The translations under genes and the position numbers were made by a program. The notes beneath the pieces were generated by a model. The model saw nothing but the letters and a program-made list of their open reading frames with translations. It was not told the DNA's origin and searched no databases. DNA of 50,699 bases from a phage. The stretch is from sequence record PZ150740.1; one strand, given 5' to 3'. Shown one piece after another: positions 2,619 to 24,618 of this stretch (position 1 is its first letter; each line of letters begins with the position of its first letter).

Positions 2619-2663
2619 ACTATACCGCAAGCCCGTTAAGATGTTTTAACAAAAAGTGCTATT
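2619..2663 (-). promoter_or_regulatory. box promoter unit (-10-like TATAGT)
   Basis: Perfect box 2643-2663; 18-bp spacer; hairpin GGGCTT/AAGCCC around -10. Confidence 0.55.
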
Positions 2664-3372
2664 ACGCATTAACAAAATCGCCGTCGTTGTGCTTGAACTC
2701 CCAGGCCGTTCCTGCTTCATCACACACGAGAAACGCCGTTTCGTTGTAGCTCCAAACATCATAAACCTTATCTTTTATAAAGTTGGCACTGACAAGGCTG
2801 TCTTTGCTGCCGATGAATCTTGCTCGCTCTGTGATCTTGATAGCATCAACGCCGTGAGATTGTATGTGAGCGTGTGGCTTGTCGTATTCCGTGACCTGAT
2901 AGGTTGTGATCCCCAAGCTGCGGAAGTGCTTAACCACGTTCGGCGAATCGTCAAAGGCGCAAACAATGTTGTCCAGGCCAATAGCGCGCAAGGCTTCTTC
3001 TTTAATAACCGTATCCTTTCGATTGTCCTCCTGGCGGCGCATGATGATTTCGTCAAACTTCACGCCGTTCTCATTCAACCATTTGCAGGTTTCATAGCGC
3101 ACCTCGTCGCTGCGTCCGGTCAGGATGACGATGGCAAATCCCGACACCCACAAACCGTTAATAACCGCGATCGTGCTTTTAATCGGTGAATCTCCGGCGG
3201 CGGCCCTGTTAAATTCGCTCCACGATTCCGTAAGGTGCAAGTTTTCAGTTGGCAGCAAGTGCAAGCGATGCGATCCGTCCGATAGTGTGCCATCCAGATC
3301 AACGATAACAATCGGCTTGCTGGTGATTAATTCGTACTTCTTGCCCCACAGTTCGAAAGTATACTTTTTCAT
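2662..3372 (-). CDS. HAD-superfamily phosphatase
   Basis: N-terminal DxDGT motif (IVIVDLDGT); stop codon in box copy 2643-2663. Confidence 0.6.
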   Translation of the reverse strand: MKKYTFELWGKKYELITSKPIVIVDLDGTLSDGSHRLHLLPTENLHLTESWSEFNRAAAGDSPIKSTIAVINGLWVSGFAIVILTGRSDEVRYETCKWLNENGVKFDEIIMRRQEDNRKDTVIKEEALRAIGLDNIVCAFDDSPNVVKHFRSLGITTYQVTEYDKPHAHIQSHGVDAIKITERARFIGSKDSLVSANFIKDKVYDVWSYNETAFLVCDEAGTAWEFKHNDGDFVNA

Positions 3373-3384
3373 CTATCGCCCCTG

Positions 3385-3564
3385 TCATGCTCTATGGATA
3401 TATTCAGCCGTGATAACGATTAGCAAGGAAAATGCTGGAATGCTCCAAATCACTTCCGCAAACGAATTGTCGTAATTCAGCCGGAATCTATGCCGCGCCG
3501 CGTGGATAAGCCACGTAAAAATGAATAACGCCCAGCACAACACAATAATAGTAAAATCTTCCAT
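3385..3564 (-). CDS. small membrane protein (59 aa, below ORF-track cutoff)
   Basis: Hand-translated ORF MEDFTIIVLCWALFIFTWLIH...; fills gap between flanking genes. Confidence 0.3.
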   Translation of the reverse strand: MEDFTIIVLCWALFIFTWLIHAARHRFRLNYDNSFAEVIWSIPAFSLLIVITAEYIHRA

Positions 3565-3585
3565 TGCATTCTCGCTTGTTAAATT

Positions 3586-3795
3586 TTATTGCAATTGCTC
3601 AATCTTTGCCGCCAGTTTATTTAACACGTTCGCCATGCGGCGGGCGCTCTCTGCCGAAAGTATTCCCCGAAAGTCTGGCATCCTGCCATATTCGAAAGTG
3701 CCATCTATAAATATCTGATTTCCACGCTGATAAACGTCGATAGTGTCTCCGTAGTCGTCGGTGAATTTATATTTTGCTGTTTTGTTCTGGTTCAT
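3586..3795 (-). CDS. hypothetical protein
   Basis: ORF track. Confidence 0.5.
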   Translation of the reverse strand: MNQNKTAKYKFTDDYGDTIDVYQRGNQIFIDGTFEYGRMPDFRGILSAESARRMANVLNKLAAKIEQLQ

Positions 3796-3797
3796 GA

Positions 3798-4157
3798 TTA
3801 ATCCTTAAACGCGTGAGCAATTTTGCTGTTAACCTTCGCTTTGATAATCGCGACGCAATAATCAGACAGGCCTCCTCTTGCAATGCGCGATTGCTGATTA
3901 TTAAATTCAATGATGGCCTCGCCAGTTTCGCCATCAATGAAGCGCTCGCGGCCCCAATTGTCTGATATGCGAGCTACACGGGAAACAGCCAGGTAGGGAT
4001 CGTCAATCCCGTAAAATTCCTTGACTGCCTTTTTTGTTAGCTCGTCCTTTTTCGCTACGATTTTCATCGCCACATTGTGACCAATCTGATCTACTGACTG
4101 GTTGCGTTCGATGATATGGCTTACGCGAAAATCAACGTCTTTGTAGCTCTTGAACAT
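3798..4157 (-). CDS. hypothetical protein
   Basis: ORF track. Confidence 0.5.
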   Translation of the reverse strand: MFKSYKDVDFRVSHIIERNQSVDQIGHNVAMKIVAKKDELTKKAVKEFYGIDDPYLAVSRVARISDNWGRERFIDGETGEAIIEFNNQQSRIARGGLSDYCVAIIKAKVNSKIAHAFKD

Positions 4158-4384
4158 TATTTGACTTCCTCAAAGGTTGCGATAAGGTCGGCGTAAGCGC
4201 AAATTGCGTTGCCGTTTTGACCGTTCAGGAACATACGGAATCCTTGATTGTTATTGACGTAAAACGATCCGGTTGATGTTCTCATTTTCTGCGCGGAGTA
4301 GATATGCCCCACTGTGAACATAAAGCCGCAACCTGGCGCTACACTGACACACTTCATTTTTTTCTGGATGATTAAACTTTCCAT
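4157..4384 (-). CDS. hypothetical protein (start adjusted to MESLIIQ)
   Basis: ORF track frame; ATG at 4384 downstream of box unit and RBS-like GAGAGGGGAAA. Confidence 0.45.
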   Translation of the reverse strand: MESLIIQKKMKCVSVAPGCGFMFTVGHIYSAQKMRTSTGSFYVNNNQGFRMFLNGQNGNAICAYADLIATFEEVK

Positions 4385-4414
4385 CGCGTTTCCCCTCTCG
4401 TTGAAAGTAGGGCC

Positions 4415-4458
4415 ATTATACCTGGCCCCACATTTGAGTTTTAACAAAAAGTGCTATT
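4415..4458 (-). promoter_or_regulatory. box promoter unit (-10 TATAAT, 17-bp spacer)
   Basis: Perfect box 4438-4458; hairpin GGGCC/GGCCC around -10. Confidence 0.55.
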
Positions 4459-5351
4459 TACACTTTGACCTTCCACTTAACCATCGTTCCGCGCTTGATG
4501 CTGATCTCACCCGCAACAGTCCGGTTTTTAGTGCCGCCATAGTGAAGCAGGAGAATAACAACATCATCATGAATTTCGATCGTCTTTGGTGTAGCCGTTA
4601 ATTCATACCAAGTGCCGTCATCAAGCCGGACTCCTTTTAGCGTGGCTGCAACTGGCATATCTTCAATCGCGCCCTGCGTTACGATTTCTTGATAGGCAAA
4701 GGCACTCTTATCAATACGCCAGCCTCCAGGCGCTTTCATTTCGGCGACCGCTTTGTGGATCTCCTCGCCAATGATTTTTTGAATTGAAGTCTTTCCGCCG
4801 CCGAATGGTGTTTCTCCAAACAAGTGTTTTGTAATGTCTTCCACGTAGTAAATCTTATCCTCTTCGTTGTGCGGATTGAATTTGTTGTGACCATTGACAA
4901 AGAAATCAACTTTCAACTCTGATTTCTGACCATCGCTATAAACGCCATTGTCGCGCGATGTGTAGCGAATCGTTGAATTACCAGCGGAGCGGAACGTGAT
5001 CGGATACTTGATATTGTCCACGCTTAAGCACCACAGCTTTTTGTAGTCGCATGTTTTCATATTTACCATCGGAATCTCTGCGCGTTCCGTTGAGCGCACT
5101 GGTAACACCTGGCCCTTATATGGCTTGTAGTGCAAGCATGTGTAGCCTGGCATTGCATAGCCATAGTCTTTAAGTGCGTTGTAGTGCTTGTTATGTGCAT
5201 CAATGAAGTGTTCAATCTCCATGCTTGATGGCGCACGCTTGTAGCTATGCAAATCAACCTTATGGCAGGTTTTTTCATCGGTAAAAATGTAATGACCAAT
5301 ACCGCGAGATTCGAAGGTGATCGGGAATTTAATGTCAGCAAGTTTTAACAT
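4458..5351 (-). CDS. hypothetical protein with internal duplication
   Basis: ORF track; repeated segments ADIKFPITFESRG / VDNIKYPITFRSAG. Confidence 0.5.
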   Translation of the reverse strand: MLKLADIKFPITFESRGIGHYIFTDEKTCHKVDLHSYKRAPSSMEIEHFIDAHNKHYNALKDYGYAMPGYTCLHYKPYKGQVLPVRSTERAEIPMVNMKTCDYKKLWCLSVDNIKYPITFRSAGNSTIRYTSRDNGVYSDGQKSELKVDFFVNGHNKFNPHNEEDKIYYVEDITKHLFGETPFGGGKTSIQKIIGEEIHKAVAEMKAPGGWRIDKSAFAYQEIVTQGAIEDMPVAATLKGVRLDDGTWYELTATPKTIEIHDDVVILLLHYGGTKNRTVAGEISIKRGTMVKWKVKV

Positions 5352-5405
5352 GGTGCTTTCTCCTGATTGGTTTTGTGGGCGACGCCGTGCCGCCCTATGT
5401 GATTT

Positions 5406-5450
5406 ATTATGCCTGGTTATCGTTTTCGAGTTTTAACAAAAAGTGCTATT
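5406..5450 (-). promoter_or_regulatory. box promoter unit (-10-like CATAAT)
   Basis: Perfect box 5430-5450; 18-bp spacer. Confidence 0.55.
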
Positions 5451-5635
5451 TAGAATTTTACCTCTTCCACAAGCTCAACCATTTTATAACCAAGACGATA
5501 AGAGTCACCGAACAACAAGATCCCCATAAATTCATCATAGCTTATTGACTCTTTGCCAACCGTTCTAAGCTCTCCGTTGTGAATCACAGTATCGCCGATC
5601 TTGATTTCTGATTTATGGACTAATTTCGTTTTCAT
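5450..5635 (-). CDS. hypothetical protein
   Basis: ORF track; stop in box copy. Confidence 0.5.
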   Translation of the reverse strand: MKTKLVHKSEIKIGDTVIHNGELRTVGKESISYDEFMGILLFGDSYRLGYKMVELVEEVKF

Positions 5636-5650
5636 TTATTCACCTGCTAA

Positions 5651-5836
5651 TTAAAAGAAAGCTACATAGTTTGCAATGCCTTTGGCGTCGTCGTTTGGCA
5701 TTGCTTTTACAGCCAGGTCATAACCTGCCTCTACCTTCTGCTTTGCTGTTTCTTCGTTGTAGCCCCAGATAACCAGGATTTTAACTACGTTTTCTTTGTT
5801 CAGGACTTTAAGGTCTTTGGTGATGCGACGTGCCAT
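5651..5836 (-). CDS. hypothetical protein
   Basis: ORF track; box unit upstream. Confidence 0.5.
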   Translation of the reverse strand: MARRITKDLKVLNKENVVKILVIWGYNEETAKQKVEAGYDLAVKAMPNDDAKGIANYVAFF

Positions 5837-5868
5837 TTTTGTTTCCTCAATCTCGTTTCGATGAGGCT

Positions 5869-5913
5869 ATTATGCCAGGCTTTGCGCCTGGCGTTTTAAC
5901 AAAAAGTGCTATT
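5869..5913 (-). promoter_or_regulatory. box promoter unit (-10-like CATAAT)
   Basis: Perfect box 5893-5913; spacer is palindrome GCCAGGCgcaaaGCCTGGC. Confidence 0.55.
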
Positions 5914-6169
5914 TAATATCTGTTGTGACTTGCTGGTGCATTACGTTCTTTCCGCTGTTGTACGTGCTATCCGTTGCGCCTTTGCAATTGGTGTAATAGA
6001 TGGCGCGACCGTTATCATAGAATCTGTATGCTGTGCATCCGTCAACAGTGAACAGGCGACCGACCTTGAAATCTGACTCCGCGCCTACGACAACCGTTGA
6101 TTCTGATGCCTTTTCGCATCCGGTCAGGAGTGTCATTGCCGCCAAAACGCCGATTAATGCCTTTTTCAT
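5909..6169 (-). CDS. lipoprotein (possible Cor-like superinfection exclusion protein)
   Basis: Signal peptide with lipobox LLTGC; small Cys/Tyr-rich mature part; Cor assignment is inference. Confidence 0.5.
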   Translation of the reverse strand: MKKALIGVLAAMTLLTGCEKASESTVVVGAESDFKVGRLFTVDGCTAYRFYDNGRAIYYTNCKGATDSTYNSGKNVMHQQVTTDIK

Positions 6170-6633
6170 TATTGCTCCTCCTCTTTGATGATTTCGCGGA
6201 TCATATCCTGGTAGCGGCTTACGCCCTCACAAGCTCCAGCCAGTTTATCCCCTTCCAGGTCCACGATGTTCGGAATTGCTGCCAGTAAGCGATCGGCAAA
6301 CTTTTTGATCGCCCTTGCCTTGATAGCTGGCAATTCTTCGGGTGTGATGATTTTCCTTTTCGATTCTCGGACCATGCGGAAAACGTAAAATTTATCATCT
6401 TCCGTTTCCTCAACCTTGATGCTTACCCGACCTGCGGCCCTTACTTCTGGAACGCGGTTGATAATGGTCCGGCTGTAGGATGAACTGCGCGTGATCTTGT
6501 AGCAGTCATCGCCGCTTAACATTCCGGCCAGGTCAATTAGTGACATTTTATACTCTTCAATATCGCCACTAGCCAGGCGGCGACCAAGCTCGCGAAGCCA
6601 ATCGCAATAGTCCTTAGTGGTCTTCTGTTCCAT
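6169..6633 (-). CDS. hypothetical early protein (start adjusted to MEQKTTK)
   Basis: ORF track frame; strong RBS GGAGGAAAGGAA before ATG at 6633; first gene after leftward consensus promoter. Confidence 0.5.
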   Translation of the reverse strand: MEQKTTKDYCDWLRELGRRLASGDIEEYKMSLIDLAGMLSGDDCYKITRSSSYSRTIINRVPEVRAAGRVSIKVEETEDDKFYVFRMVRESKRKIITPEELPAIKARAIKKFADRLLAAIPNIVDLEGDKLAGACEGVSRYQDMIREIIKEEEQ

Positions 6634-6664
6634 TTCCTTTCCTCCAGTTGTTGACTGTTGGCGC

Positions 6665-6692
6665 ATTATAAAAGCTATTTGGTGCGTGTCAA
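6665..6692 (-). promoter_or_regulatory. near-consensus sigma70 promoter (TTGACA-16-TATAAT) for leftward early genes
   Basis: Minus strand reads TTGACAcgcaccaaatagctttTATAAT immediately upstream of gene 6169-6633. Confidence 0.6.
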
Positions 6693-7114
6693 TGTTTTTG
6701 TTGTATTCAAAACGTTACCAATATCGAAAAACTACAAAATCATGCGCAAGTTGTTGATTTCAGGGCTGTTATTTTTCTGTTCACGCTGTTAACGCAATCC
6801 GCCGGAAAAAGTATATATACATATGCAATCCGCCGCGCGCGCAACTATCCATATATACCCACACACAACCAGACCATAACCAACAAAAAGCACTGTAACA
6901 GTGAGAACAAAAAGAAAACATTATAGATATATATAAATAAATAATCTTTATTTTCAATGTATTATAGAGGGATTTTTTTGTTTTTTCCGTTTTCGCTACA
7001 CCGGAAAACCGCGCGGAAACACGCCGCCTGAAATCGGTAACAGGGGTGAACAAAAGACAACAACCACTGACAGCCAGGCGGAAAAGTGAGGCAAGAGGGG
7101 AAGGTTTCACTATC

Positions 7115-7220
7115 TCCCCTGCAACCAATGATTAAACGTGATTACTTTTCTCATCAAATTTGCAAAGGCAATCATCATTTTGACGTGATTTGATTACGAA
7201 TGATTACTTTTGATTATTTC
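7115..7220. repeat. cluster of GATTA(C) direct repeats (iteron-like) in divergent control region
   Basis: About six copies of (T)GATTAC/GATTT within ~100 bp, e.g. tgattacttttc twice. Confidence 0.35.
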
Positions 7221-7246
7221 GATCACAATCCTGGCGCTAACCGTCA

Positions 7247-7291
7247 AATAGCACTTTTTGTTAAAACTCAGACCACCTGATCGGGTACATT
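7247..7291 (+). promoter_or_regulatory. box promoter unit (-10-like TACATT)
   Basis: Perfect box 7247-7267; leader ACACACATCGAAACGAA. Confidence 0.55.
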
Positions 7292-7325
7292 ACACACATC
7301 GAAACGAACCGCTCAGGAGATAGCA

Positions 7326-7598
7326 ATGAACATCAGCAAAACCACTTTCAACTTCGCTAAGCGTCACGGTCTGGATCTGACTGTTGAAGACTTCGGCGAT
7401 GTTCTGCAACTCTGCATATGGGAAGCAGATAACGATTGCGAGTGGCTTTGCTCTTACCGTATCAACTACGATTGCTTGACCTGGCACGGCAATATCTATC
7501 TGCCGCAAGAAGTGAAGGAAGAATTGCCAGCGACTATCAACAACGAAGTTTTCTTGCGTCAGGTGCTGAAATTTATCAGTGAGGAGATCAAGAAGTGA
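7326..7598 (+). CDS. hypothetical early protein
   Basis: ORF track; box unit 7247-7291 upstream. Confidence 0.55.
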   Translation: MNISKTTFNFAKRHGLDLTVEDFGDVLQLCIWEADNDCEWLCSYRINYDCLTWHGNIYLPQEVKEELPATINNEVFLRQVLKFISEEIKK

Positions 7599-7864
7599 TG
7601 GCGGTGATTACCGAAAATGATTTGGATCTGGCGGAGGCATTTTGCAGGGCCGCCAGGGCTAACCTGGATGTGGCTACTAAATTTCTTCCGGTGCGCCCAC
7701 TCTTTTCGTGTGCGCCCGTGAATAAACCGACTCGCGTAATGATCGTGATTGAAGGTGATGGCCTGTACGCTGAAAAGACGTTCCACATCAGCAACATTAA
7801 GGGCCGTGCTGATTTTATCAATGATGTTTGCTTATTGCAGGAGAAGAAAAAATGCTTAATGTGA
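7598..7864 (+). CDS. hypothetical protein
   Basis: ORF track; start overlaps upstream stop (TGATG). Confidence 0.5.
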   Translation: MAVITENDLDLAEAFCRAARANLDVATKFLPVRPLFSCAPVNKPTRVMIVIEGDGLYAEKTFHISNIKGRADFINDVCLLQEKKKCLM

Positions 7865-8064
7865 TCAAGAAAGCACATGAGATGGGTATGGATGTTTCAA
7901 TCTGCGACGCTTCCTCGCGTCACCCGTCAGCACCTGAAAATATGGTTGTTGTCATCGTACATAATCACCGCTATGAGTGCCGTGCGATGTTTGAGAAGCA
8001 GGATAAAGAGTCTCAACGCTGTTTTATCAACGAAGTTTGCGATCTGTATGGGAGAATCAACTGA
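7852..8064 (+). CDS. hypothetical protein
   Basis: ORF track frame; ATG after GGAGAAG RBS. Confidence 0.5.
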   Translation: MLNVIKKAHEMGMDVSICDASSRHPSAPENMVVVIVHNHRYECRAMFEKQDKESQRCFINEVCDLYGRIN

Positions 8065-8330
8065 TGGCACGTATCAATGCACCTATTCCAGTTAAGCGCA
8101 AAGCGCGTTTGCTCAATAACGGATGTTACGCCCTGCGGCCAGCATTTAAGGATCGCACATTTCCGGTTATCGTTAACGTGTCTCACGTAAGCCGTAGCGG
8201 AAACCTGGTATTCGTTAAAGGTGAAGATCTGGCGGCGCTTGGATTCTACGGCGGTGTTTATAGCGAACCGCTCGGATTCTGGCTTGTAGATCCGTTAACT
8301 GGCGAGCGTGAAATCGAATTTCTGGACTAA
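8064..8330 (+). CDS. hypothetical protein
   Basis: ORF track frame; TGATG overlap; stop TAA embedded in box 8330-8350. Confidence 0.5.
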   Translation: MARINAPIPVKRKARLLNNGCYALRPAFKDRTFPVIVNVSHVSRSGNLVFVKGEDLAALGFYGGVYSEPLGFWLVDPLTGEREIEFLD

Positions 8331-8374
8331 ATAGCACTTTTTGTTAAAACTCAATCCTCTCATTCCTGTACATT
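8330..8374 (+). promoter_or_regulatory. box promoter unit (-10-like TACATT)
   Basis: Perfect box; leader ACACGCATCGACAACGAA. Confidence 0.55.
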
Positions 8375-8407
8375 ACACGCATCGACAACGAATGTGAGGA
8401 TTTGAAA

Positions 8408-8560
8408 ATGGTTACTCTGATTACCTGGGAACACGAAAACAGCCAGCCGGAAGCGCGCGAATTTGAAACCGTAGCCGCTTGTTACAACCTGGCGAAAAAT
8501 GGCGGATTCTACAAGGCGCAAATCGTTAACGAGTTTGGAGTTGTTGACTATGAGTTCTAA
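8408..8560 (+). CDS. small protein (50 aa, below ORF-track cutoff)
   Basis: Hand-translated MVTLITWEHENSQPEAREF...; preceded by box unit and RBS TGAGGA. Confidence 0.4.
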   Translation: MVTLITWEHENSQPEAREFETVAACYNLAKNGGFYKAQIVNEFGVVDYEF

Positions 8561-8837
8561 GTTTTACAGCTACACCGACACAGTGGATTTTGAGGGGATA
8601 CAATTGCCCCTCCCGAATATATACCGCTATATCACTCGTGACGAACGCGGATTTATTGAAGCCTGGCGCGCGAAGCCAGTGCGGGATCTTGAATTTGGTG
8701 GCTTCCGATCCCTTGAAGGTGAATTGCCGATCTGCTTTGGTCATCAAAGCGGTAAAAACCTTCCTGTTGTTGAGCGTCAGTATCGCCGCCACAAGATTAC
8801 AAGGCAACTTATCTCTTTAACTGGAAAAGTTGTTTAA
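8550..8837 (+). CDS. hypothetical protein (start adjusted to MSSKFYS)
   Basis: ORF track frame; stop TAA inside box 8836-8856. Confidence 0.5.
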   Translation: MSSKFYSYTDTVDFEGIQLPLPNIYRYITRDERGFIEAWRAKPVRDLEFGGFRSLEGELPICFGHQSGKNLPVVERQYRRHKITRQLISLTGKVV

Positions 8838-8880
8838 TAGCACTTTTTGTTAAAAACGATGTGCGCCTGAATGGTATATT
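8836..8880 (+). promoter_or_regulatory. box promoter unit (-10-like TATATT)
   Basis: Box with 1 mismatch; leader ACATCCATCGACAACAAA. Confidence 0.55.
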
Positions 8881-8911
8881 ACATCCATCGACAACAAACG
8901 AGGATTTAAAG

Positions 8912-9109
8912 ATGGAAAATCAAGTTGATGTTAAAGTAATTATTCGCGACAAGTCTCACGAAAAAGGCTTATTCAAGAAAGGCACTGAAATTACCATCGA
9001 TCTTGATGATATGGTTGCTTACCATTCAGGCTTGGAATGGAAGGTTGTTAAGGTTAACGAATATCATTTCAAGTTGGCTGGCTTTGAAACCGTAATGGAG
9101 ATCATTTAA
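8912..9109 (+). CDS. hypothetical protein (start adjusted to MENQVDV)
   Basis: ORF track frame; RBS GAGGA before ATG. Confidence 0.5.
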   Translation: MENQVDVKVIIRDKSHEKGLFKKGTEITIDLDDMVAYHSGLEWKVVKVNEYHFKLAGFETVMEII

Positions 9110-9321
9110 TGGCAAAGCAATTAAAACTTAAATGCGTAGAAACTTATAACTCAACTTGGAGATTTACGCGCGGAAAAGAATATCGACTAATGGGAAATCT
9201 CAAAGAAGATCCCCATGTAATTTCAGACAATGGTCTTCACCTTTATTTAATGGAATACAACGATGGCTATATTGGCGCTGGTGTTCCAGGCCATAAATTT
9301 AAGATGAAAAATAAGAAATGA
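9109..9321 (+). CDS. hypothetical protein
   Basis: ORF track; TAATG overlap with upstream gene. Confidence 0.5.
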   Translation: MAKQLKLKCVETYNSTWRFTRGKEYRLMGNLKEDPHVISDNGLHLYLMEYNDGYIGAGVPGHKFKMKNKK

Positions 9322-9429
9322 TGCTATTTATTTTCAAAAATGCCTGGATGGTGGCTGTTGCAAATGATCATTACGGCGGCGACGGAAAAAGAGCGCCACG
9401 TCATTCATATTTCAATTGAGGATATTTAA

Positions 9430-9657
9430 ATGAAAGCAAAAGTTTTAAACATTATGGCAACTATTGACGCTCATCACCGCGTTGCTGTAAAACTTGATAA
9501 GTCTTGCGGAATTAGCCAAATCACTATCACCGAGGGCAAAGGCGGCTATCTTATTGGTATCCATCCAGGCGGTAAGGTGCGCAAATACAATAAAGATCAG
9601 GTAAAAGAATTACTGGAAGAAAACGCTTTCTATATTCAAAGTTGGCGCGCTCTTTAA
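9430..9657 (+). CDS. hypothetical protein
   Basis: ORF track; followed by terminator. Confidence 0.5.
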   Translation: MKAKVLNIMATIDAHHRVAVKLDKSCGISQITITEGKGGYLIGIHPGGKVRKYNKDQVKELLEENAFYIQSWRAL

Positions 9658-9664
9658 TTAATCT

Positions 9665-9685
9665 GGCGGCGTTTTGCCGCCTTTT
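9665..9685 (+). terminator. rho-independent terminator
   Basis: GGCGGC-gtttt-GCCGCC hairpin followed by TTTT. Confidence 0.5.
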
Positions 9686-9699
9686 AAATGAGGTGGAAA

Positions 9700-9816
9700 A
9701 TGATAGATAAAGCTATTGATTTCTTTTTTTATTCGATTATTGGTGCGGTTGGCTTTTTGGTTACTGCTGCTGGCCTGGCTATTATCTTAGCTGTTATTAA
9801 GGGGATTATGCGATGA
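9700..9816 (+). CDS. small single-TM peptide (38 aa, not in ORF track)
   Basis: RBS GAGGTGG then ATG; hydrophobic core IIGAVGFLVTAAGLAIILAVI. Confidence 0.35.
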   Translation: MIDKAIDFFFYSIIGAVGFLVTAAGLAIILAVIKGIMR

Positions 9817-9977
9817 GTCAAGACGGATTTTTTGAACGCCTTCAAATGGCAGAAGATGCCGGACTAAATAAAGAGGCGGCGCTTGAGGTGGCATATAAAA
9901 TTAAGACTCTTGATGAGGCTTTAGGTGATATGGATATGGATCTGAATCAAGCGCAATATTTGCAGATCCCACTATGA
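9813..9977 (+). CDS. small acidic protein (54 aa, not in ORF track)
   Basis: ATGA overlap with upstream ORF; hand-translated MSQDGFFERLQ... Confidence 0.35.
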   Translation: MSQDGFFERLQMAEDAGLNKEAALEVAYKIKTLDEALGDMDMDLNQAQYLQIPL

Positions 9978-10171
9978 TTGTTAATGATTGTGGATGCGAT
10001 TTCGATCCTGGTTGTGCGCGCTGTTTTCCGTTTTGAGGTAATTACGATGTATAAAGGTTTAATATTCTCCCTATTGATGGATCTGGTAAAGCCGTTAAAG
10101 ATTGGGCTGATAATGGCTATAAGTGCATTTGCTTTAATGCTGACGGCGGCGATCACGGTGATTACCAGTCA

Positions 10172-10756
10172 GTGCGCATACAGCATGAGAATATCGAATA
10201 CGTTAACGTCTGGATTGATGAAAGATTTTACCACCGCGCGCGCTGGGAGGAATGGGGCATTCCTGACTTTATTATGGCATTTCCACCATGCACCGACCTT
10301 GCAAATAGCGGATCTCGCCATTGGGCCAAAAAACGCCTTGAGAATCCATCGTTCCAGGATGAGGCCGCCGACACTTGCAGGATCGCGGCTGATATAGCTG
10401 ATTATTTCGGTGTTCCTTACATGATCGAAAATCCGGTTGGCAAGTTGTCAACGTTATGGCGAAAGCCTGATTATACGTTCCATCCGTGCGATTACGCTGG
10501 CTATCTGCCGGAAGATGATAAACATCCCGACTTCCCTGATATTATTCCGGCGCGGGATCGCTACTTTAAGAAAACGTGCCTCTGGACTGGCAACGGCTTT
10601 GTTATTCCTCCACGCGCTTTAATCCTGCCGAAAGAGGAAGACAAAGATAATCCAGGCTGGGCCAAAACTGGCGGCAAGTCATCGCGCACAAAGATGATCC
10701 GCTCCCTCACTCCGCGCGGATTTGCTCGCGCCGTCTTTGAGTCAAACTCAAAATAG
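10172..10756 (+). CDS. cytosine-C5 methyltransferase-like protein (catalytic core; N-terminus uncertain, frame open from 10055)
   Basis: FPPC (PC-motif-like), ENP(V)G (ENV-like), PARDRYF and GNGFV motifs in C5-MTase order; no ATG for motif-I region. Confidence 0.4.
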   Translation: MRIQHENIEYVNVWIDERFYHRARWEEWGIPDFIMAFPPCTDLANSGSRHWAKKRLENPSFQDEAADTCRIAADIADYFGVPYMIENPVGKLSTLWRKPDYTFHPCDYAGYLPEDDKHPDFPDIIPARDRYFKKTCLWTGNGFVIPPRALILPKEEDKDNPGWAKTGGKSSRTKMIRSLTPRGFARAVFESNSK

Positions 10757-10796
10757 CACTTTTTGTTAAAAGCCAGGTGTAAAAACCTGGCATAAT
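10752..10796 (+). promoter_or_regulatory. box promoter unit (-10-like CATAAT)
   Basis: Box with 1 mismatch; spacer palindrome GCCAGG-tgtaaaaa-CCTGGC. Confidence 0.55.
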
Positions 10797-10825
10797 CACA
10801 TCGAACAAACAAAGGAGATCTGATC

Positions 10826-11026
10826 ATGAATGTTATCTGTAATGAAACCAACGTATTGATGAAAGGCCGTTTTAAAACGGTTTATCAGAAGATTGCAGGA
10901 AGTAATGATGTGATCGAGGTGGAAGAATTCAGGTTAAGACGCTTGTTAAGGGTAGCCGCTGGCTTCCAGCAAACCGAGATGATTACCGCGCCATTAACAC
11001 AAAAACCGTTCTTTGCACGTTTGTAG
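10826..11026 (+). CDS. hypothetical protein
   Basis: ORF track; box unit 10752-10796 upstream. Confidence 0.5.
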   Translation: MNVICNETNVLMKGRFKTVYQKIAGSNDVIEVEEFRLRRLLRVAAGFQQTEMITAPLTQKPFFARL

Positions 11027-11034
11027 ATCATAAC

Positions 11035-11211
11035 ATGCCGTGCAAAAAGCACTTTAAGCAGGGCAAGCGATACCGAATCGAGAAAGGGCGACCGCTTGGA
11101 AGCGTTGCGGGTTATGTTTTTGATGAGTGCGGCGACCGCTGGAACCTGTACCGTGAAGAGGTCGGATTCTCTGCTGGCGGCTGTTATCTGTTTGAGGGTA
11201 AATATCTGTGA
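11035..11211 (+). CDS. small Cys-containing protein (58 aa, not in ORF track)
   Basis: Hand-translated MPCKKHFKQGKRYRIEKGRPLG... Confidence 0.35.
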   Translation: MPCKKHFKQGKRYRIEKGRPLGSVAGYVFDECGDRWNLYREEVGFSAGGCYLFEGKYL

Positions 11212-11429
11212 TAAACAGTGAAAACCGTTACAAAGTAACGCATTCTACCACAAAGACTTTCAAGCCTGGCGATATAGTCAGGCCCATCAAAAAAACGGCG
11301 GTAGGTTGGCTGATTGGTTTTTCATATCATAAGGCGCTTTACTTTACGTTTAAGGATGGGATTACAGGAGAATGCTACAGCGACCGCCAGCCTGATCGAC
11401 TTCTGGTTGCAATAGAGCGGATCAAATAG
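11208..11429 (+). CDS. hypothetical protein
   Basis: ORF track; stop TAG inside box 11425-11445. Confidence 0.45.
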   Translation: MINSENRYKVTHSTTKTFKPGDIVRPIKKTAVGWLIGFSYHKALYFTFKDGITGECYSDRQPDRLLVAIERIK

Positions 11430-11469
11430 CACTTTTTGACAAAACGGGGTAGTATTGGGCCGTTAAAAT
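11425..11469 (+). promoter_or_regulatory. box promoter unit variant (TTGACA inside box; -10-like TAAAAT)
   Basis: AATAGCACTTTTTGACAAAAC; hairpin GGGCCG/CGGCCC overlaps -10. Confidence 0.5.
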
Positions 11470-11497
11470 TTACGGCCCACAAAGGAGAAGCTAACGA

Positions 11498-13078
11498 ATG
11501 TTTTCATTAGAAACGAACAAATTAACTCCACAGCAAATAATCGCTATGGCTGAAAGCCAGAACCTTTCACCAGTTCGCGTATCAATTCAGGCTAACGGCT
11601 ATCGCCAGTCGTCCAGCTTTTGGGGCGACGTGAAGGATGTAAATAGCGGTCATGATCGCTACCCCGTTATTTCTCTTGGTAATGATATTGATGTTGTAGG
11701 CAAGTTATCACGCAGTATTGCGCGATCCGTTCAATTTCCTGAATCATCGGCTTACATGCACTTTATCGGCTGCATTTCCGCCGCTATGCTTGGACGCTTT
11801 ACGGTTGACTATCACGGAACCGATCAGCCGACTGCGCTTTACGTGGTTACAAGCCAGCCGCCGTCAACTGGTAAATCTGCGATCAACAGTATGGCTATTG
11901 CTCCGATGATTGCGGAAGTTGAGAAGATCAACGAGCAACGCCGCAAGGAAAGAAAGAAAATACAGGCAAAGTTGGCAGGTCTTGCAAAGGAGATGAAAAG
12001 CGAAAGATCCGGCGCTGATATGGAATCTCTATACCAGGAAAAAGAGGATCTGGAGGAGAAGCTGGAAAAGATGTGTGATATAACTTTCCCTGTTTCAGAT
12101 ACAACTCCAGAAGGCTTGGCGAAAATCAACAACAAGCAAGGTAACTTTGCCGTAATATCTGACGAAGCAACAAGTATTAATAGCCTGTTAGGCTTGACCT
12201 ATGCAAATAGCGAAAGGAAGACTAACAGTGAGCTAGTGCTTAAGGCGTGGGATAATGGTCACGTATCAATTGCCCGTGCTAATGCTGACAATAATATGAG
12301 TTTTCGCGCGCTTGGATGCATGAGCGTTATAGCACAGGATGAAACGATAAGCGGTATCATGGACGCTGGATCGCGCGGTATCGGTGTGAGTGAGCGCTTT
12401 TTGTTGGTCCGCGAAGAATCATTCTTAGGCCGTCGCTCATTCATTGATGAAAATGGTGATTCTACCTATGAGGCGGTGGATTCTGAATTGAAAGCCCAAT
12501 ATTATCAATTGGTGCATAACATCATGAGCGAATCAAATATATCGCTGAAAATAAGCCGCTCAGCTATGCGAGTGCTCAACATTGCTCGTCAGGATATGGA
12601 ACCGCATCTTGCAGACGGCGGAAAGTATTCTCATACAATGTTACGCGGTGCGCTGGGTAAAATGGATAAACAGGTGATCAGGCTTGCTTCCGTCCTGCAT
12701 GTTATCCGTAACTGGTTTAATCCTGCCGGATACCCGCAGAAGTCGAAAGAGATCGACGTGGAAACAATGCAAGAGGCGTTGATCATGTTTCAGGAATTGA
12801 GCAAAACATACATTAGCGCCGCCAATGCTTCTGGTTATGCTGGTGATGATGCTGAAATGGGTAAATTGATTGAATTGATCACGAGGCACGGCAAGGCTAA
12901 CAAAGGGATTCTGAATATTCGCGCCCTGTACGAATCAGCGAGAAAGGTAAAACCTTTCGTTGGTCAGGCTGGCGTAATGAAGAGGATAGAGGGGCACTTG
13001 CTGCCAATGCTGGAAGAAAGAAATTATGTTTGTGTGATTAATGGTGTTATTTTTGTCAATCCAATACTGCTGGGATGA
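11498..13078 (+). CDS. large early protein, possible replication-associated ATPase
   Basis: 526 aa; deviant P-loop-like PPSTGKS; placement in early right block; family assignment uncertain. Confidence 0.35.
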   Translation: MFSLETNKLTPQQIIAMAESQNLSPVRVSIQANGYRQSSSFWGDVKDVNSGHDRYPVISLGNDIDVVGKLSRSIARSVQFPESSAYMHFIGCISAAMLGRFTVDYHGTDQPTALYVVTSQPPSTGKSAINSMAIAPMIAEVEKINEQRRKERKKIQAKLAGLAKEMKSERSGADMESLYQEKEDLEEKLEKMCDITFPVSDTTPEGLAKINNKQGNFAVISDEATSINSLLGLTYANSERKTNSELVLKAWDNGHVSIARANADNNMSFRALGCMSVIAQDETISGIMDAGSRGIGVSERFLLVREESFLGRRSFIDENGDSTYEAVDSELKAQYYQLVHNIMSESNISLKISRSAMRVLNIARQDMEPHLADGGKYSHTMLRGALGKMDKQVIRLASVLHVIRNWFNPAGYPQKSKEIDVETMQEALIMFQELSKTYISAANASGYAGDDAEMGKLIELITRHGKANKGILNIRALYESARKVKPFVGQAGVMKRIEGHLLPMLEERNYVCVINGVIFVNPILLG

Positions 13079-13470: not shown

Positions 13471-13586
13471 GGATTTTATTCATGCTTTACTTACGCTACT
13501 TTATTCAGATATGCGCGCTTTTAGCACCACTGAACATGTTTTATGCAATGATGATGGTGTATTACTGGTTACGGTAAAGCGTATGG

Positions 13587-13631
13587 AATAGCATTTTTTG
13601 TTAAAACGCCCGGCCTAGTGTCGGGTATATT
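13587..13631 (+). promoter_or_regulatory. box promoter unit (-10-like TATATT)
   Basis: Box with 1 mismatch; 40-bp near-identity to unit at 16802-16846 on the opposite strand. Confidence 0.55.
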
Positions 13632-13667
13632 TGTTTCATCGAAACGAAACAACCAAAAGGTAAAATT

Positions 13668-13892
13668 ATGTCCAGCAAGTTTTTAGTAGTTCGCGTATAT
13701 AATCATGACAACGGATCTTCTGCTGAAATCCCAACAATTTACGACAGGGATTTTGGATGGAGTGAGCAATCGGCGGTTGAAAATGAGCGCAAGATTGCAG
13801 AACTGTACGGCGACACTTGCAGCATTGAAGTAAGGCAGTACGACGAATCGAACAAGCCAACAAACGAAACTCATATGTGGCCCGACGCATAA
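13668..13892 (+). CDS. hypothetical protein
   Basis: ORF track; box unit 13587-13631 upstream; terminator downstream. Confidence 0.5.
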   Translation: MSSKFLVVRVYNHDNGSSAEIPTIYDRDFGWSEQSAVENERKIAELYGDTCSIEVRQYDESNKPTNETHMWPDA

Positions 13893-13898
13893 AAATAA

Positions 13899-13926
13899 AG
13901 GAGGCATTAAGCCTCCTTTTTCTTTT
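13899..13926. terminator. rho-independent terminator (plus strand), overlapping 3' end of spanin gene
   Basis: AGGAGGC-attaa-GCCTCCT followed by TTTTTCTTTT. Confidence 0.5.
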
Positions 13927-14302: not shown

Positions 14303-14303
14303 T

Positions 14304-14788
14304 TCAATCCATTGTGCAATATTTGTATTCGACCTTGCGCCTGTTAAGTAAGCCTTTAGACTTCTCGCGCTTTCCTGTTTTGGGGTTATGGTAATACGTC
14401 CAACGATAAAGCTGATCGCAAGCCTCGTTTAATTTCCCCTGGTTGATGAGTTTCAGCATTGTTGAATTTCTGAAAGCTCCAACTCCTGCATTATAAGTGA
14501 ATGAGTACATTGCTGCACGCATACTATCAGGAATGTCAACCTTAACTTGCTTGTCAACTTCTTTTTTAGCAACCTGGATATGTTTAGCCAACAAAGCATC
14601 ACACTCTTTTTAGTGTACGTTTTCCCCAGGATAACATCTGGTCCGGTTATTCCTGCGCAAACAGTCCATACTCCCGCAATATCTTTGTATGGCTTGTATC
14701 TTACCCCTTCGATCTCTTCAAGAAGTGGAGAAGTCAAGGCAACCGCAACGCCAAAGGCCGCAGCCGCTACCTTGTTCTTTATGCTCAT
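14304..14788 (-). CDS. SAR endolysin (lysozyme), reading frame interrupted by 1-nt frameshift near 14600-14612
   Basis: Two track ORFs in different frames; N-part has SAR-like TMD and [19 protein letters not shown]-part [17 protein letters not shown]; resembles P21-type lysozyme as recalled. Confidence 0.6.
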
Positions 14789-15003
14789 TACTTGCCCCTG
14801 ATTTCAATAGCTTTTTGAATATCACCTTTTTCGATCGCCTCGTGGAATTTTTTACTATCACGCCAGCGAAGGTAAGCGCCCCATGCACCGAATGCAGCCA
14901 TTAAAACAAAGCTGGCAATAGCAATGGTTAACTGCCCTGTAGCTGCGCTTGCGATAGATGAACCGCCAGATCCGGCGGTAGCTGCGTTAATAAAATCTTT
15001 CAT
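14788..15003 (-). CDS. holin (pinholin-like)
   Basis: 71 aa, two hydrophobic segments, Gly/Ala/Ser-rich first TMD; directly upstream of endolysin. Confidence 0.55.
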
Positions 15004-15147
15004 TTTTATTCTCCATATTAATTAAAGTCAATATATTGACCGAATGATAAACTTACATGGTAAAAAATTAAACAAAAAAAGAGGCGACAAACGCCGCCCC
15101 TTTGCAAGTTTTTGATTTAATTTGTCATTGATTTAAATAAAAATTCA

Positions 15148-16265
15148 TCAATTCATCATTTCTGGATAGTGAACAAATCGCCCCACTTCTCCATGCTCTT
15201 TGTCGTAAATGATAACCGCTGCACGGCGTCGAGATCTCCAGCCACCGCGCGCGGCGTATGCGTCTTTTGCCGCCAGGGTGCTATGCACCTCAACGATGCC
15301 AAGCGACGTTTCCGTCACAGTCTGGTGATGCCAGTGCCCTACGTGCGCATACATAGTTTTTGAGTTTCCGAAGTCCTCCCGCCAATCTGACGCGCACATC
15401 ATTAGCAAAGTCTCAGGTTTGCGCACTGTGTGCCCGTGATGGTACGCAAGGAAAGTTTTTCCGTATTGCGTGTGGTGAACAACGCGAGGAGAAACATCAA
15501 CGTAAACGCGCGGCTCGTTCTCATATGCTGCCGCCATTGCTGCGCGTAGCCAAATCATTCCTGATTGGTCGTGATTCCCCTCTACTACCTGGACCTCAAC
15601 ATGTTTATGCTTTAACAGCATTTTATTAATTGCGCGGCGCACTGCACGTATTGCAACGTAAACCAATTTTGCATATCGGCTATCTTGATCAAGTACGTGA
15701 CCGCTTGCAGGTGTCACCGCCTCCAGGCCGTCGCTATGCAGCATATCGCCACCAATCAGGATAACAGCCTTTTCGCTGTCCGGTGCGCACATCAAAGCAT
15801 AGTCGATAAAGTTATTCATAACGCGCTCTGCCGTCGCAGTATCCCAATTTTCGCCGCATTCGTGCTTATGGGCCATAGCGCCTAAGTGCATGTCAAAGAT
15901 CGGATACAATGAAAGCGTTTCATTATAGTTACGCTCCTGCAATGGAACTGGATCTAATCGCGGCACTTCCTCGCTAAATGCCTCCATTGCTGCGCGCATC
16001 AATGCCTCTAATTGCTCTTTATCCTTGCTGGTTTTTGTCCACTTGAGGATTATGTTGCCTTCTTTGTCAGTCATTACTGACTCACCATGAACACCAAAAC
16101 CAGGCGCTCCAATGGTCGATAACTGTCCTTGCTTTGCAAGACGCGCCGCGCGACGCTCGACGCTTCTCACATTCATTCCGTACTCTTGAGCGATCTGTTT
16201 ATATGTCTTACCTGCCGCCCGTTCGATCTTGAGTTGCTCATCTGTAATTTTTACATTTTTCATTC
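15148..16265 (-). CDS. calcineurin-like metallophosphoesterase with N-terminal HTH-like domain
   Basis: Motifs GGDMLHSDG, EGNHD, HHGH; N-terminal segment YKQIAQEYGMNVRSVERRAARL; start adjusted to MKNVKI. Confidence 0.6.
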
Positions 16266-16357
16266 TGCTACCTATCTCATTACTATATGGTACATAACTG
16301 TAACAGCGATGATAACGGGTAACGGTAGAACAAACAAGCGCCACATGATAACTATCC

Positions 16358-16600
16358 TCATTTATAATATTTGCGAGGCTCTCGGATTTTAGCCATTGCC
16401 TCTTTGAAATCAATTTTTGTTGGAACTGCTGGAACTCTCACCATTTTTCGCGGCCTTTCCTTGAGGAAAGTCATCTTATCGCCGCTAATTATGCTCACAT
16501 CTGCAATATCAAAGTATTGCGCGATCTTCTTTATATCGTCGGCTATTCCGCATTCTTTAGCGTGATTCCATACCGCATCTCTACCTTGCTCAACCTTCAT
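16358..16600 (-). CDS. hypothetical protein (start adjusted to MKVEQGR)
   Basis: ORF track frame. Confidence 0.45.
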   Translation of the reverse strand: MKVEQGRDAVWNHAKECGIADDIKKIAQYFDIADVSIISGDKMTFLKERPRKMVRVPAVPTKIDFKEAMAKIREPRKYYK

Positions 16601-16769
16601 GCTTATAATATGCCTCCGCTTGTTCAATTGGCGCGTGACCGTATGCAACTTTCAGTAAAAACATTGCGATGTCCCAATCAAACTGGAACCCTTCCTTTGA
16701 ACCGCCCTCTACTGAACCTTTTGCTACTTCTTGAGCAAGATTAAAAGCGCGTTTATCGAATACCACCAT
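16590..16769 (-). CDS. small protein (59 aa, not in ORF track)
   Basis: Hand-translated MVVFDKRAFNLAQEVAKGS...; RBS GAGGAAATAAAA; downstream of box unit. Confidence 0.4.
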   Translation of the reverse strand: MVVFDKRAFNLAQEVAKGSVEGGSKEGFQFDWDIAMFLLKVAYGHAPIEQAEAYYKHEG

Positions 16770-16801
16770 TTTTATTTCCTCATGTTTGCTTCGTTGAAAT
16801 A

Positions 16802-16846
16802 ATTATGCCCGACACTAGGCCGGGCGTTTTAACAAAAAATGCTATT
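16802..16846 (-). promoter_or_regulatory. box promoter unit (-10-like CATAAT)
   Basis: Box with 1 mismatch; near-identical to unit at 13587-13631. Confidence 0.55.
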
Positions 16847-17102
16847 AGTGGATCATTCCGTGCTGAAAATTCCACGAATCGACAAACTCTTGCATGTCAT
16901 TTCTTATTTGTTCGTGCCATTTTTCAAGCGGTAGTTTTCTTGTCTCCTCAAAGCTCATATCTAATGCGCTTGAAAATTCCCACGGATCGCAATCAATCAT
17001 CTTTTTCACGTTATGGTTTTTATCAAGTGCATCGCACACCATAGCGCGAAATAACAACCATTCGCCAGTTTCATTTAAATAAACGCTTCTCTCTTTTTTC
17101 AT
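16845..17102 (-). CDS. hypothetical protein
   Basis: ORF track; stop in box 16826-16846. Confidence 0.5.
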   Translation of the reverse strand: MKKERSVYLNETGEWLLFRAMVCDALDKNHNVKKMIDCDPWEFSSALDMSFEETRKLPLEKWHEQIRNDMQEFVDSWNFQHGMIH

Positions 17103-17106
17103 CGTG

Positions 17107-17832
17107 TTAGCTCCGTTTGCGTGCGCGACGTTCGGTTACAGAAGGGCAAATATCGCTGATCTTAACGTATCGCGTTTTCTGCTCCTCGCCTTCTTTAAGT
17201 TTGCGCATGACAAAAATCACGCTTCCCTTGTTGTTGCCCTGCACAGGCTCACCAGTCAATCCAGACACAAAGGCGATTCTTCCGGTGCGGGAGTATTCTA
17301 CTCCACCCTCTTCGTAAACCTCGCCAGTGATCCAGATGATTTCAGCCGCGTTTTTCTGCGCTTCATAAAACCATGCTGTAGAGTTGTCGGCTGGCAACAA
17401 AACATCAATTTGGTTGTTGTGCTCCATTTGCTCAATTGCTTTCTTGATAAATGGAGTTGGGTTGCTGTACGGTGGGTTAAGCCATACGTGCTTGTTGCTA
17501 CCCCACCAACGCTTTAAGCAGTTTGTTTCCTTGCTATAGAACTTCTCGCAAACTGCGTTTTCCTGGCTTGCTGCTGCGTCGAGATCGTATTCACCAAATT
17601 CTGATTCCATCCACTCCACGATCTCTTGAGGAGTGCTCCACATATCGCGCACAACGTCCGGCGTGGTGCTTCCAGCGTATCGGTTGCCGCTTACCTTATA
17701 ATATTGATTTGGCTTTACTGCCTGGTAATGGCCTCCAGTTGCAAGGGCATTCCCTATAAACGTTTCTCTCTCCAACTGCTCAAAGCTAACGAATGCGTCA
17801 TGAGTGTCTTTATCTAAAATATCTTTAGCCAT
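17107..17832 (-). CDS. dam: DNA N6-adenine methyltransferase (Dam-like)
   Basis: NPPY motif (WLNPPYSNP); box unit upstream. Confidence 0.75.
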   Translation of the reverse strand: MAKDILDKDTHDAFVSFEQLERETFIGNALATGGHYQAVKPNQYYKVSGNRYAGSTTPDVVRDMWSTPQEIVEWMESEFGEYDLDAAASQENAVCEKFYSKETNCLKRWWGSNKHVWLNPPYSNPTPFIKKAIEQMEHNNQIDVLLPADNSTAWFYEAQKNAAEIIWITGEVYEEGGVEYSRTGRIAFVSGLTGEPVQGNNKGSVIFVMRKLKEGEEQKTRYVKISDICPSVTERRARKRS

Positions 17833-17871
17833 TTCATTTCTCCGCTATTAAAAGCAATCTCGTGTTATTGA

Positions 17872-17916
17872 ATTATGGCGCAATCCATCGCGCCAGTTTT
17901 AACAAAAAGTGCTATT
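17872..17916 (-). promoter_or_regulatory. box promoter unit upstream of Dam gene (-10-like CATAAT)
   Basis: Perfect box 17896-17916; spacer hairpin GGCGC/GCGCC. Confidence 0.55.
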
Positions 17917-24612: not shown

Positions 24613-24618
24613 AAAAAT

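Follow-up and report, generated by a model that had tools for sequence, protein, structure and literature searches.

Variable stem-loops within the promoter-like units of a T1-like phage keep two registers and pair on the sense strand

We analysed the inverted repeats that accompany a 21-nt intergenic box in the genome of a T1-like siphophage of the family Drexlerviridae (PZ150740.1). The window, that is, the whole stretch of DNA analysed, comprised 50,699 nt and represented a whole genome, which was considered circularly permuted because the window ends join, with the unit at 29-49 running across them. Escherichia phages including vB_EcoS-95, tonijn and tunus were ~95% identical to it (megablast of window positions 2000-12000). 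The inverted repeats were non-random. They occupied two registers of a fixed promoter-like unit, their pairing was kept through sequence change, and the pairing was on the sense strand. With roughly even confidence, we propose that these hairpins form or stabilise the 3' end of the RNA arriving from the upstream gene.

The units were studied in 47 genomes, namely this phage, T1 and 45 related contigs, which together yielded 342 unique units. Sources of the sample were a pattern scan of IMG/VR, contigs around helicase homologues, and T1. Positions in the unit (p) were counted from the first base after the box. Read in the gene direction, the box is AATAGCACTTTTTGTTAAAAC. The window contained 13 copies with at most two mismatches and 16 with at most three; the chance expectation was zero for both. 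The layout was the same in every good unit: the box adjoins or overlaps the upstream gene's stop codon and is itself followed by an 18-nt spacer, a hexamer of the form nAnnnT (CATAAT, TATAGT, TATAAT, TACATT and others), six bases, CA, a conserved stretch resembling AUCGAAACGA, the ribosome site GAGGA, and the ATG. Each window box faced such a downstream ATG, roughly 50-60 nt past the box end.

The spacing was surveyed on 427 unique boxes from the same genomes. The best offset of the -10 hexamer from the box was 18 nt for 358 boxes, 17 nt for 26, and 19 nt for 11. Across units, nAnnnT was fixed at p19-24, p30 was C in 80% and p31 was A in 82%. From this geometry, we infer that the hexamer is a sigma-70 -10 element, covering -12 to -7, and predict the start at the A of CA. 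The units had no usable -35 element and rarely a TGn. The box itself is a dyad, TAGCA-N5-TG(C/T)TA (TGYTA), centred at about -42 from the predicted +1 (e.g., 5893-5913 and 10752-10772), which suggests that it is read by a dimeric DNA-binding protein. These features fit the geometry of class II activator-dependent sigma-70 promoters (a dyad at about -41.5, a -10 element, and a poor or absent -35), the start site being a predicted one. Judged by their sequence, the units would be active promoters of the host RNA polymerase.

The window box corresponds to the T1-like intergenic direct repeat of consensus aaATAGCACnnnTTGnTAAAA, described as the 21-base repeats DR1-DR18 of phage TLS and also noted in T1, Rtp, and Rogue1 (PMC11447400). 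The TLS repeats are intergenic, oriented with transcription and ~76 nt ahead of the start codon. Their function was posed as an open question by the TLS authors, who suggested a stoperator, an enhancer, or an UP element, and who reported no RNA polymerase or sigma gene in the TLS genome (PMC11447400).

All six inverted repeats pointed out in a first-pass annotation of this DNA were present, although displaced by 1-6 nt; their true spans are 5874-5892, 10772-10791, 17876-17895, 2613-2634, 4410-4428 (extendable to 4407-4431), and 11456-11479. Five further window hairpins had been overlooked (1-22, 1305-1323, 13608-13626, 16807-16825, and the displaced hairpin 5377-5395). The last of these folded at about -14 kcal/mol, contained a sense G·U pair and was kept in five sequence variants; its unit, 5430, was devoid of a spacer hairpin. 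In the 36 nt after the box, eight of the 13 window units folded at -9 kcal/mol or lower, compared to 7.5% of random 36-mers from the same genome, and none of 1000 shuffles reached the observed mean fold energy. Folding of both strands, which the annotation had proposed as a check, gave sense-strand z-scores of -2.2 to -5.2 for the window hairpins, with the sense strand more stable than the antisense strand. Box units make up ~1.3% of the genome but hold seven of its ~31 strong perfect GC-rich inverted repeats; the remaining ones were mostly canonical terminators of the late region. Rfam returned no match at the gathering score for the whole window.

Hairpins were called across the sample with a strand-neutral helix finder that tolerated both G·T and A·C (helix score of at least 13), and a stem-loop was detected in 219 of the 342 units. 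After redundancy reduction by clustering at 80% identity (151 clusters, one representative each), 58% of the representatives folded more stably than the 5th percentile among shuffles of the same sequence. The annotation had described the placement of the repeats as conserved and their sequences as variable. Both descriptions held, and the placement turned out to be sharper than described, as the hairpins fell into two registers. In class A (105 units), the stem runs from p1-2 to p19-20 and fills the spacer plus the first one or two hexamer bases; stems are 5-8 bp, loops are mostly 4-5 nt, and 75 of the stems start at p1, flush with the box. In class B (110 units), the hairpin spans from a left arm beginning near p6-9 to a right arm ending near p29-32; it encloses the -10 and ends at -1 or the predicted start. 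Class B stems are 5-12 bp, mostly 8-10 bp, and some of these helices reach ~15 bp through pairing of p1-5 with +1 to +5. The arms differed widely between units while pairing was kept: the left arm alone came in 53 versions in class A and in 80 in class B.

Covariation in fixed columns was not informative here. Both RNAalifold on 11 orthologues and a column-pair complementarity scan of the 342 units gave a weak or misleading signal, because the hairpins occupy several registers (i+j = 18-23 and 37-46). Helix finding in each sequence and counts of strand asymmetry were used in place of these methods.

The stems reached into the -10 hexamer at its least critical positions, namely -12 (C) in class A and -8 (G) in class B. 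CATAAT, with its C paired to the G at p1, was found in 61 of the 105 class A units. TATAGT, with its G paired, was found in 51 of the 110 class B units but in only two class A units. Within the intergenic gap, the only positions left free would be those of the spacer and of the six bases that separate the -10 from the start, and the inverted repeats take up exactly these positions. The hairpins may thus sit inside the next promoter because the rest of the gap is fully occupied, an arrangement that gives the two registers.

Turnover of the stems was evident among orthologous promoters. One such promoter (16826 type) bears at least four different stems among phages, with compensatory changes (gccAgg..tcTggc versus gccCgg..tcGggc, and TGCCCGGC/GTCGGGCA versus TGCCCCGC/GTGGGGCA). 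Other orthologous promoters (group 2) carry a class A hairpin in one phage, a class B hairpin in another, and none in a third. Copying was evident as well. The convergently oriented units 13587-13648 and 16785-16846 are the arms of a 62-nt, 90% inverted repeat; both carry the rare GCAT variant of the box, and their 18-nt spacer hairpins are identical, which indicates copying or gene conversion between promoters. Across the sample, 284 pairs of units with different flanking genes had hairpin regions at least 80% identical, as expected from cassette copying. Such copying would also be seen if the hairpins were functionless passengers of the promoter cassettes. That explanation is highly improbable, given the number of distinct stems, the compensatory and wobble-only changes, a strand bias as strong as that of true terminators, and stems that intrude into the -10 hexamer at a cost to its consensus match.

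The strand on which pairing is kept was determined from wobble pairs. What reads as G·T on the gene strand pairs as G·U in sense RNA, whereas in antisense RNA, and likewise in the opposite arm of a cruciform, the site is an A·C mismatch. Helices contained 150 G·T and 15 A·C pairs, whereas composition predicts a ratio of 1.1 to 1 (p = 2e-26). The asymmetry was strongest in class A (60 G·T versus one A·C), where half of the stems held at least one G·T. Among the cluster representatives, 51 had G·T and eight had A·C. As a positive control, canonical one-sided U-tract terminators on the same contigs gave 67 to 20 in favour of the U-tract strand. The mean fold energy was -9.0 kcal/mol for the sense strand and -7.0 kcal/mol for the antisense strand (Wilcoxon p = 4e-30), and GNRA or UNCG tetraloops were present in 27 of 83 sense loops but in three of 53 antisense loops. 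The paired strand tracked gene direction in all three oppositely oriented clusters. Taken together, the hairpin signal is very probably that of sense-strand RNA, and annotators should read hairpins within these promoters on the gene strand. Hairpins in single-stranded DNA linked to replication were also considered and were rejected, as a single fork direction is incompatible with pairing that tracks gene direction in three clusters.

The first-pass annotation had read the repeats on the opposite strand, as intrinsic terminators in which a hairpin followed by GUUUUA(A/G)C opposite the genes stops antisense or convergent transcription. It stated that each hairpin is followed by GUUUUAAC on that strand. 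This was the case for 5874, 10772, and 17876, but the three hairpins that enclose a -10 stop 8-11 nt short of the antisense run, which has only four U. Perfect palindromes are equally stable on both strands (antisense -17.1 kcal/mol for 5874-5892, -12.3 for 10772-10791, and -12.2 for 17876-17895), and the class A stems flush with the box do place four U directly after them on the antisense strand. However, flush placement is forced anyway when 19-20 nt are fitted into an 18-nt spacer. The run, UUUU and then A, is part of the box (AAAAC) with or without a hairpin, and class B, half of all hairpins, ends 8-11 nt away from it. A·C pairs, which would be the wobbles of antisense RNA, were nearly absent, and the tetraloop bias likewise pointed to the sense strand. 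The antisense fold of 13608-13626 was no better than its shuffles (z = -0.14), and a terminator scan of the window (at least five T in eight) found nothing on the antisense strand. As for convergent transcription, its sole point of convergence already has a canonical bidirectional terminator (13897-13919). We therefore regard antisense termination as very improbable.

The same asymmetry bears on a role at the DNA level, in which a cruciform or altered spacer mechanics, for example with the -10 in a loop, would tune promoter strength or supercoiling sensitivity. The repeats lie strictly within the promoter, their stems are GC-rich, and in class B the -10 does sit in the loop. A cruciform, however, needs both strands paired, and with a ten-to-one excess of G·T, the template arm is often mismatched. 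In addition, the tetraloops are biased to one strand, the hairpin of unit 5430 lies outside the promoter, neither register nor stem length is constant, and cluster-first promoters have no hairpin. Such a DNA element is improbable.

The preferred reading, a 3' end for the upstream RNA, starts from polymerases that began further upstream. They would transcribe through the unit, and the stem-loop would form in the read-through RNA just past the upstream coding region. Where a U run follows the stem, the hairpin would act as a full intrinsic terminator; otherwise, it would be a leaky terminator or a mere pause, so that strength would be graded. The stem-loop may also serve as a barrier to 3'-to-5' exonucleases, leaving the upstream message with a stable stem-loop at its end.

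Several features agree with a terminator-like role. Class A has the stem expected of a sense terminator (GC-rich, 5-11 bp, with a loop of 3-8 nt, shortly after the stop codon), with stems that begin 19-21 nt past the stop codon. A U tract was found for 13608-13626 and 16807-16825, the two hairpins that the window scan marked as terminator-like in the sense direction, as well as in nine mini-terminators and a small number of class B units. The nine units in question hold the complete mini-terminator in their spacer (AAAAC-CCGC-U(A/U/C)CG-GCGG-GUUUU); T62 of TLS is among them. Class B stems followed by a U run include T57 of TLS and T1 35930-35971. In the GenBank record of T1, four hairpins embedded in box units are annotated as sense terminators (35930-35971, 38973-39001, 39998-40024, and 41980-42007), of which the last three are class A and lie directly after boxes at 38953, 39976, and 41956. 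In the TLS table, T57 and T62 are marked as sense terminators (PMC11447400).

Genomic context was suggestive of a read-through role. Units at divergent junctions had no hairpin in 27 of 28 sequence variants (19 of 20 of the 7247 type and eight of eight of the 20382 type). Nothing can read through from upstream at such junctions, so the absence of hairpins there supports the reading as read-through RNA. Over all units, a hairpin was present in 68% of those with a co-directional upstream open reading frame (ORF) and in 32% of the rest. One orthologous group with a canonical upstream terminator has no embedded hairpin; as a general test, replacement of the hairpin by such a terminator was not significant (4/84 versus 6/219). 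We infer that transcription reads past the units and that the hairpins end or stabilise the upstream RNA.

A number of results weigh against this reading. None of the six hairpins listed by the annotation has a sense U run, 96 of the 110 class B units have at most two T in the next 8 nt, and T enrichment after class A stems was only marginal (p = 0.07). Class B and most of class A are thus not efficient intrinsic terminators, because they are devoid of a U run. The counts given above overstate the number of independent events, because the units are phylogenetically related and have been copied between promoters. When calculated per orthologous group, the correlation between a co-directional upstream ORF and a hairpin was weak (Spearman 0.24, p = 0.2); there are only two truly divergent groups, and the ORF calls were crude, with shadow ORFs mislabelled. 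The co-directional units 8330 and 8836 have no hairpin. The searched literature contained no mapping of transcript 5' or 3' ends for Drexlerviridae. Finally, in mosaic comparisons, the hairpin region travelled with the downstream gene in 31% and with the upstream gene in 11%. Such co-travel agrees no less well with a hairpin that is tied to the promoter or protects what lies downstream; it is not decisive and leaves room for a downstream-serving role.

One such role would be processing or insulation on behalf of the downstream cistron, through cleavage by RNase III or linked to RNase E, or through a block to 5'-to-3' scanning by RNase E that isolates the unstructured leader and ribosome site. 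The annotation had likewise offered RNA processing sites in read-through transcripts as its second choice. It was right about the direction, as the signal is on the sense RNA, but RNase III is unlikely for stems of typically 5-10 bp. This enzyme needs about two helical turns, and neither class A (5-8 bp) nor class B (5-12 bp) offers the ~20 bp of mostly double-stranded RNA of an RNase III site, although some class B helices extend further, as noted. The leader is A/C-rich and unstructured, as insulation would have it, and the co-segregation with the downstream gene is in its favour. There is, however, no conserved cleavage motif, and neither the continuum of U runs nor the replacement by a canonical upstream terminator is explained. 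On balance, we consider processing or insulation possible but unlikely.

Alternatively, transcription could start just after the box, which would place the hairpin at the 5' end of the unit's own RNA. Stem-loops in this position stabilise mRNAs in E. coli, and class A begins at p1-2. Yet nAnnnT at p19-24 and CA at p30/31 put the start past the hairpin, and the TAAAAC that would have to serve as the -10 is without the essential T at -7. Class B hairpins would leave 6-8 unpaired 5' bases, and the absence of hairpins at cluster-first promoters would go unexplained. This explanation is barely credible.

A further reading is a relay from terminator to promoter. The nascent hairpin would stop or release the read-through polymerase inside the next promoter, just before the -10 in class A and at +1 in class B, so that a ~60-bp element would end one message and hand the polymerase, or access to the promoter, on to the next. 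We consider the relay rather unlikely. If it were true, the strength of hairpin and tail would set relative early-gene dosage, and the T1-like 21-nt repeat units would be compact insulated expression cassettes, not simple promoters.

The 21-nt repeat is thus a component of a fixed promoter-like module, whose free positions appear to be reused to encode an RNA stem-loop of the transcript arriving from upstream, and selection for the stem seems to have been strong enough to alter the -10 hexamer at positions -12 and -8. The units would thus be a natural case of two signals in the same 20-30 bp, one acting as double-stranded DNA and one as RNA. Boxes, hairpins, and late-region terminators of the window are listed in Table 1.

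Table 1. Boxes, stem-loops and late-region terminators of PZ150740.1 (positions are those of the window; energies in kcal/mol)
Feature	Position	Strand
Class B stem-loop of unit 29, AAGGGCA..TGCCCTT around -10 TAAAGT, continuing into 50698-50699	1-22	-
21-nt box AATAGCACTTTTTGTTAAAAC	29-49	-
Class A stem-loop GCGGGG-ttatcgg-CCCCGC directly before TATAAT	1305-1323	-
Box variant ATAGCACGAATTGCTAAACG, overlooked in the first-pass annotation; owner of hairpin 1305-1323	1323-1343	-
Class B, GGGCTT..AAGCCC around -10 TATAGT (2619-2624); 8-bp stem with G·U; sense -14.9	2613-2634	-
21-nt box	2643-2663	-
Class B around -10 TATAAT (4415-4420); perfect core 4410-4428; sense -17.1, antisense -12.2	4407-4431	-
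21-nt box	4438-4458	-
Displaced stem-loop GGGCGGC-acggc-GTCGCCC, lying at roughly +5 to +23 in the predicted unit 5430 transcript	5377-5395	-
21-nt box	5430-5450	-
Class A, GCCAGGC-gcaaa-GCCTGGC, filling the spacer; last C is the first base of -10 CATAAT (5869-5874)	5874-5892	-
21-nt box	5893-5913	-
Box of hairpin-less unit; the rightward cluster starts with this promoter, at a divergent junction	7247-7267	+
Box of hairpin-less unit; orthologous promoters elsewhere carry class A or B hairpins	8330-8350	+
Box of unit with a weak fold only (-6.9)	8836-8856	+
21-nt box, ends in G	10752-10772	+
Class A, GCCAGGT-gtaaaa-ACCTGGC; its stem includes the final base of the box and the C of CATAAT (10791-10796)	10772-10791	+
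Box variant TTGACAAAAC	11425-11445	+
Class B, TGGGCCGT..ACGGCCCA around -10 TAAAAT (11464-11469)	11456-11479	+
21-nt box, GCAT variant	13587-13607	+
Class A, GCCCGGC-ctagt-GTCGGGT, sense G·U pair, followed by AUAUUUGUUU; sense terminator-like in scan	13608-13626	+
Class A, copy of 13608-13626; sense terminator-like in scan	16807-16825	-
21-nt box, GCAT variant	16826-16846	-
Class A, TGGCGC-gatggatt-GCGCCA; uses the C and A of CATAAT (17872-17877)	17876-17895	-
21-nt box	17896-17916	-
Box of hairpin-less unit at the second divergent junction	20382-20402	-
Late-region terminators	24614-24641, 28597-28617, 32255-32271, 34389-34410, 37472-37489, 38200-38218, 41864-41885, 42742-42763, 48682-48699	

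Some boxes are followed by a full canonical terminator, with both stem and U run, that overlaps the position of the -10. This was observed in the window at 46482-46535 (- strand), where AAGGCTGGA-tttt-TCCAGCCTT TTTTATT lies at 46482-46503, and also in L135, L141, and L146 of the sample. Such units look like a terminator first and a promoter second. The late region (20001-50699) is rich in canonical terminators, frequently bidirectional ones, that follow individual genes or small groups of genes, a layout matching that described for T1 as the 'transcripton'. Antisense-oriented box units occur in the late-gene region beside bidirectional terminators (38136-38218 and 41864-41944), and T1 (L121) keeps this arrangement at 18831-18850 and 15067-15086. 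The RNA of unit 38136 (+ strand) would be only ~50 nt long and would end at the terminator 38200-38218, and these units may produce short antisense RNAs.

The first 11 transcribed bases (p31-p41; e.g., 5852-5862 on the - strand) are conserved as AUCGAAACGAA and are followed by the A/C-rich, G-poor, unstructured leader that extends up to the GAGGA ribosome site. The conserved AUCGAAACGAA could reflect an effect of the initial transcribed sequence or a translation enhancer.

A candidate for the factor that binds the box is the 158-aa protein encoded at 20413-20889 (+ strand), which showed a weak match to the Cro/YdaS helix-turn-helix and was 58% identical to T1 gp23 ('transcriptional regulator'). 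Box 20382-20402 lies antisense in the leader of this gene, 10 nt ahead of its ATG. The gene's own sigma-70-like promoter (TTTAAA-17-TATAAT, 20334-20362) shares its -10 region back-to-back with the TATTAT of unit 20382 (- strand), and the protein may be self-regulating. Separately, a perfect sigma-70 consensus (TTGACA-16-TATAAT) was detected at 6665-6692 (- strand), directly upstream of a DUF7174 gene (6169-6666, - strand). The first 20 kb contained no other 12/12 match, and this promoter may be an immediate-early one.

We compared the hairpins to known systems. T7, another lytic coliphage, likewise has structured RNA between its early genes, namely the RNase III sites of the early region, which are part of read-through transcripts. 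These sites are irregular helices of ~20-25 bp, whereas the hairpins described here are mostly 5-10 bp. Promoters of N4 also contain a hairpin-forming inverted repeat. In N4, the hairpin forms on the template DNA strand, has a 3-nt loop and a conserved sequence, and needs a virion RNA polymerase. Here, the stem is variable and it is the non-template, or RNA, strand that retains pairing; for TLS, moreover, no polymerase gene was reported. The hairpins also differ from lambda nut-like boxA/boxB elements, which have a conserved protein-binding loop, as their loops vary in length and sequence within one genome. The stabilising stem-loops found at 3' ends and between cistrons in E. coli, such as REP hairpins and the stem-loops to which Rho-terminated RNAs are trimmed, are similar in being short, GC-rich, devoid of a U run and located just past a coding region on the sense strand. 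Those of the phages differ in that they are overlaid on the spacer or -10 of the next promoter, in fixed registers.

The terminators annotated in T1 and TLS are similar as well, being sense hairpins directly after a box that are read as the end of an upstream unit, in line with the 'transcripton' idea. Those annotations cover only a few U-tailed hairpins, one by one; the majority described here are without a U run, lie inside or around the -10, and form a family-wide pattern that had not been recognised. The paper on the TLS direct repeats (PMC11447400) covers the repeat alone; neither the -10 at its fixed distance nor the variable hairpins, with their registers and strand, are described in it. 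Papers on AHP/AKS, MSK, KanT1, and BASEL-daunorubicin contained nothing relevant to the hairpins. Thus, the box and a handful of T1 and TLS hairpins were known, while the general pattern, the registers, the sense signature and the overlap with the -10 were not found in the searched literature. Beyond phages, a preprint on the coupling of bacterial promoters with terminators (bioRxiv 10.64898/2026.08.19.745784) puts forward a related idea, namely that adjacent units share DNA at their termination and initiation sites.

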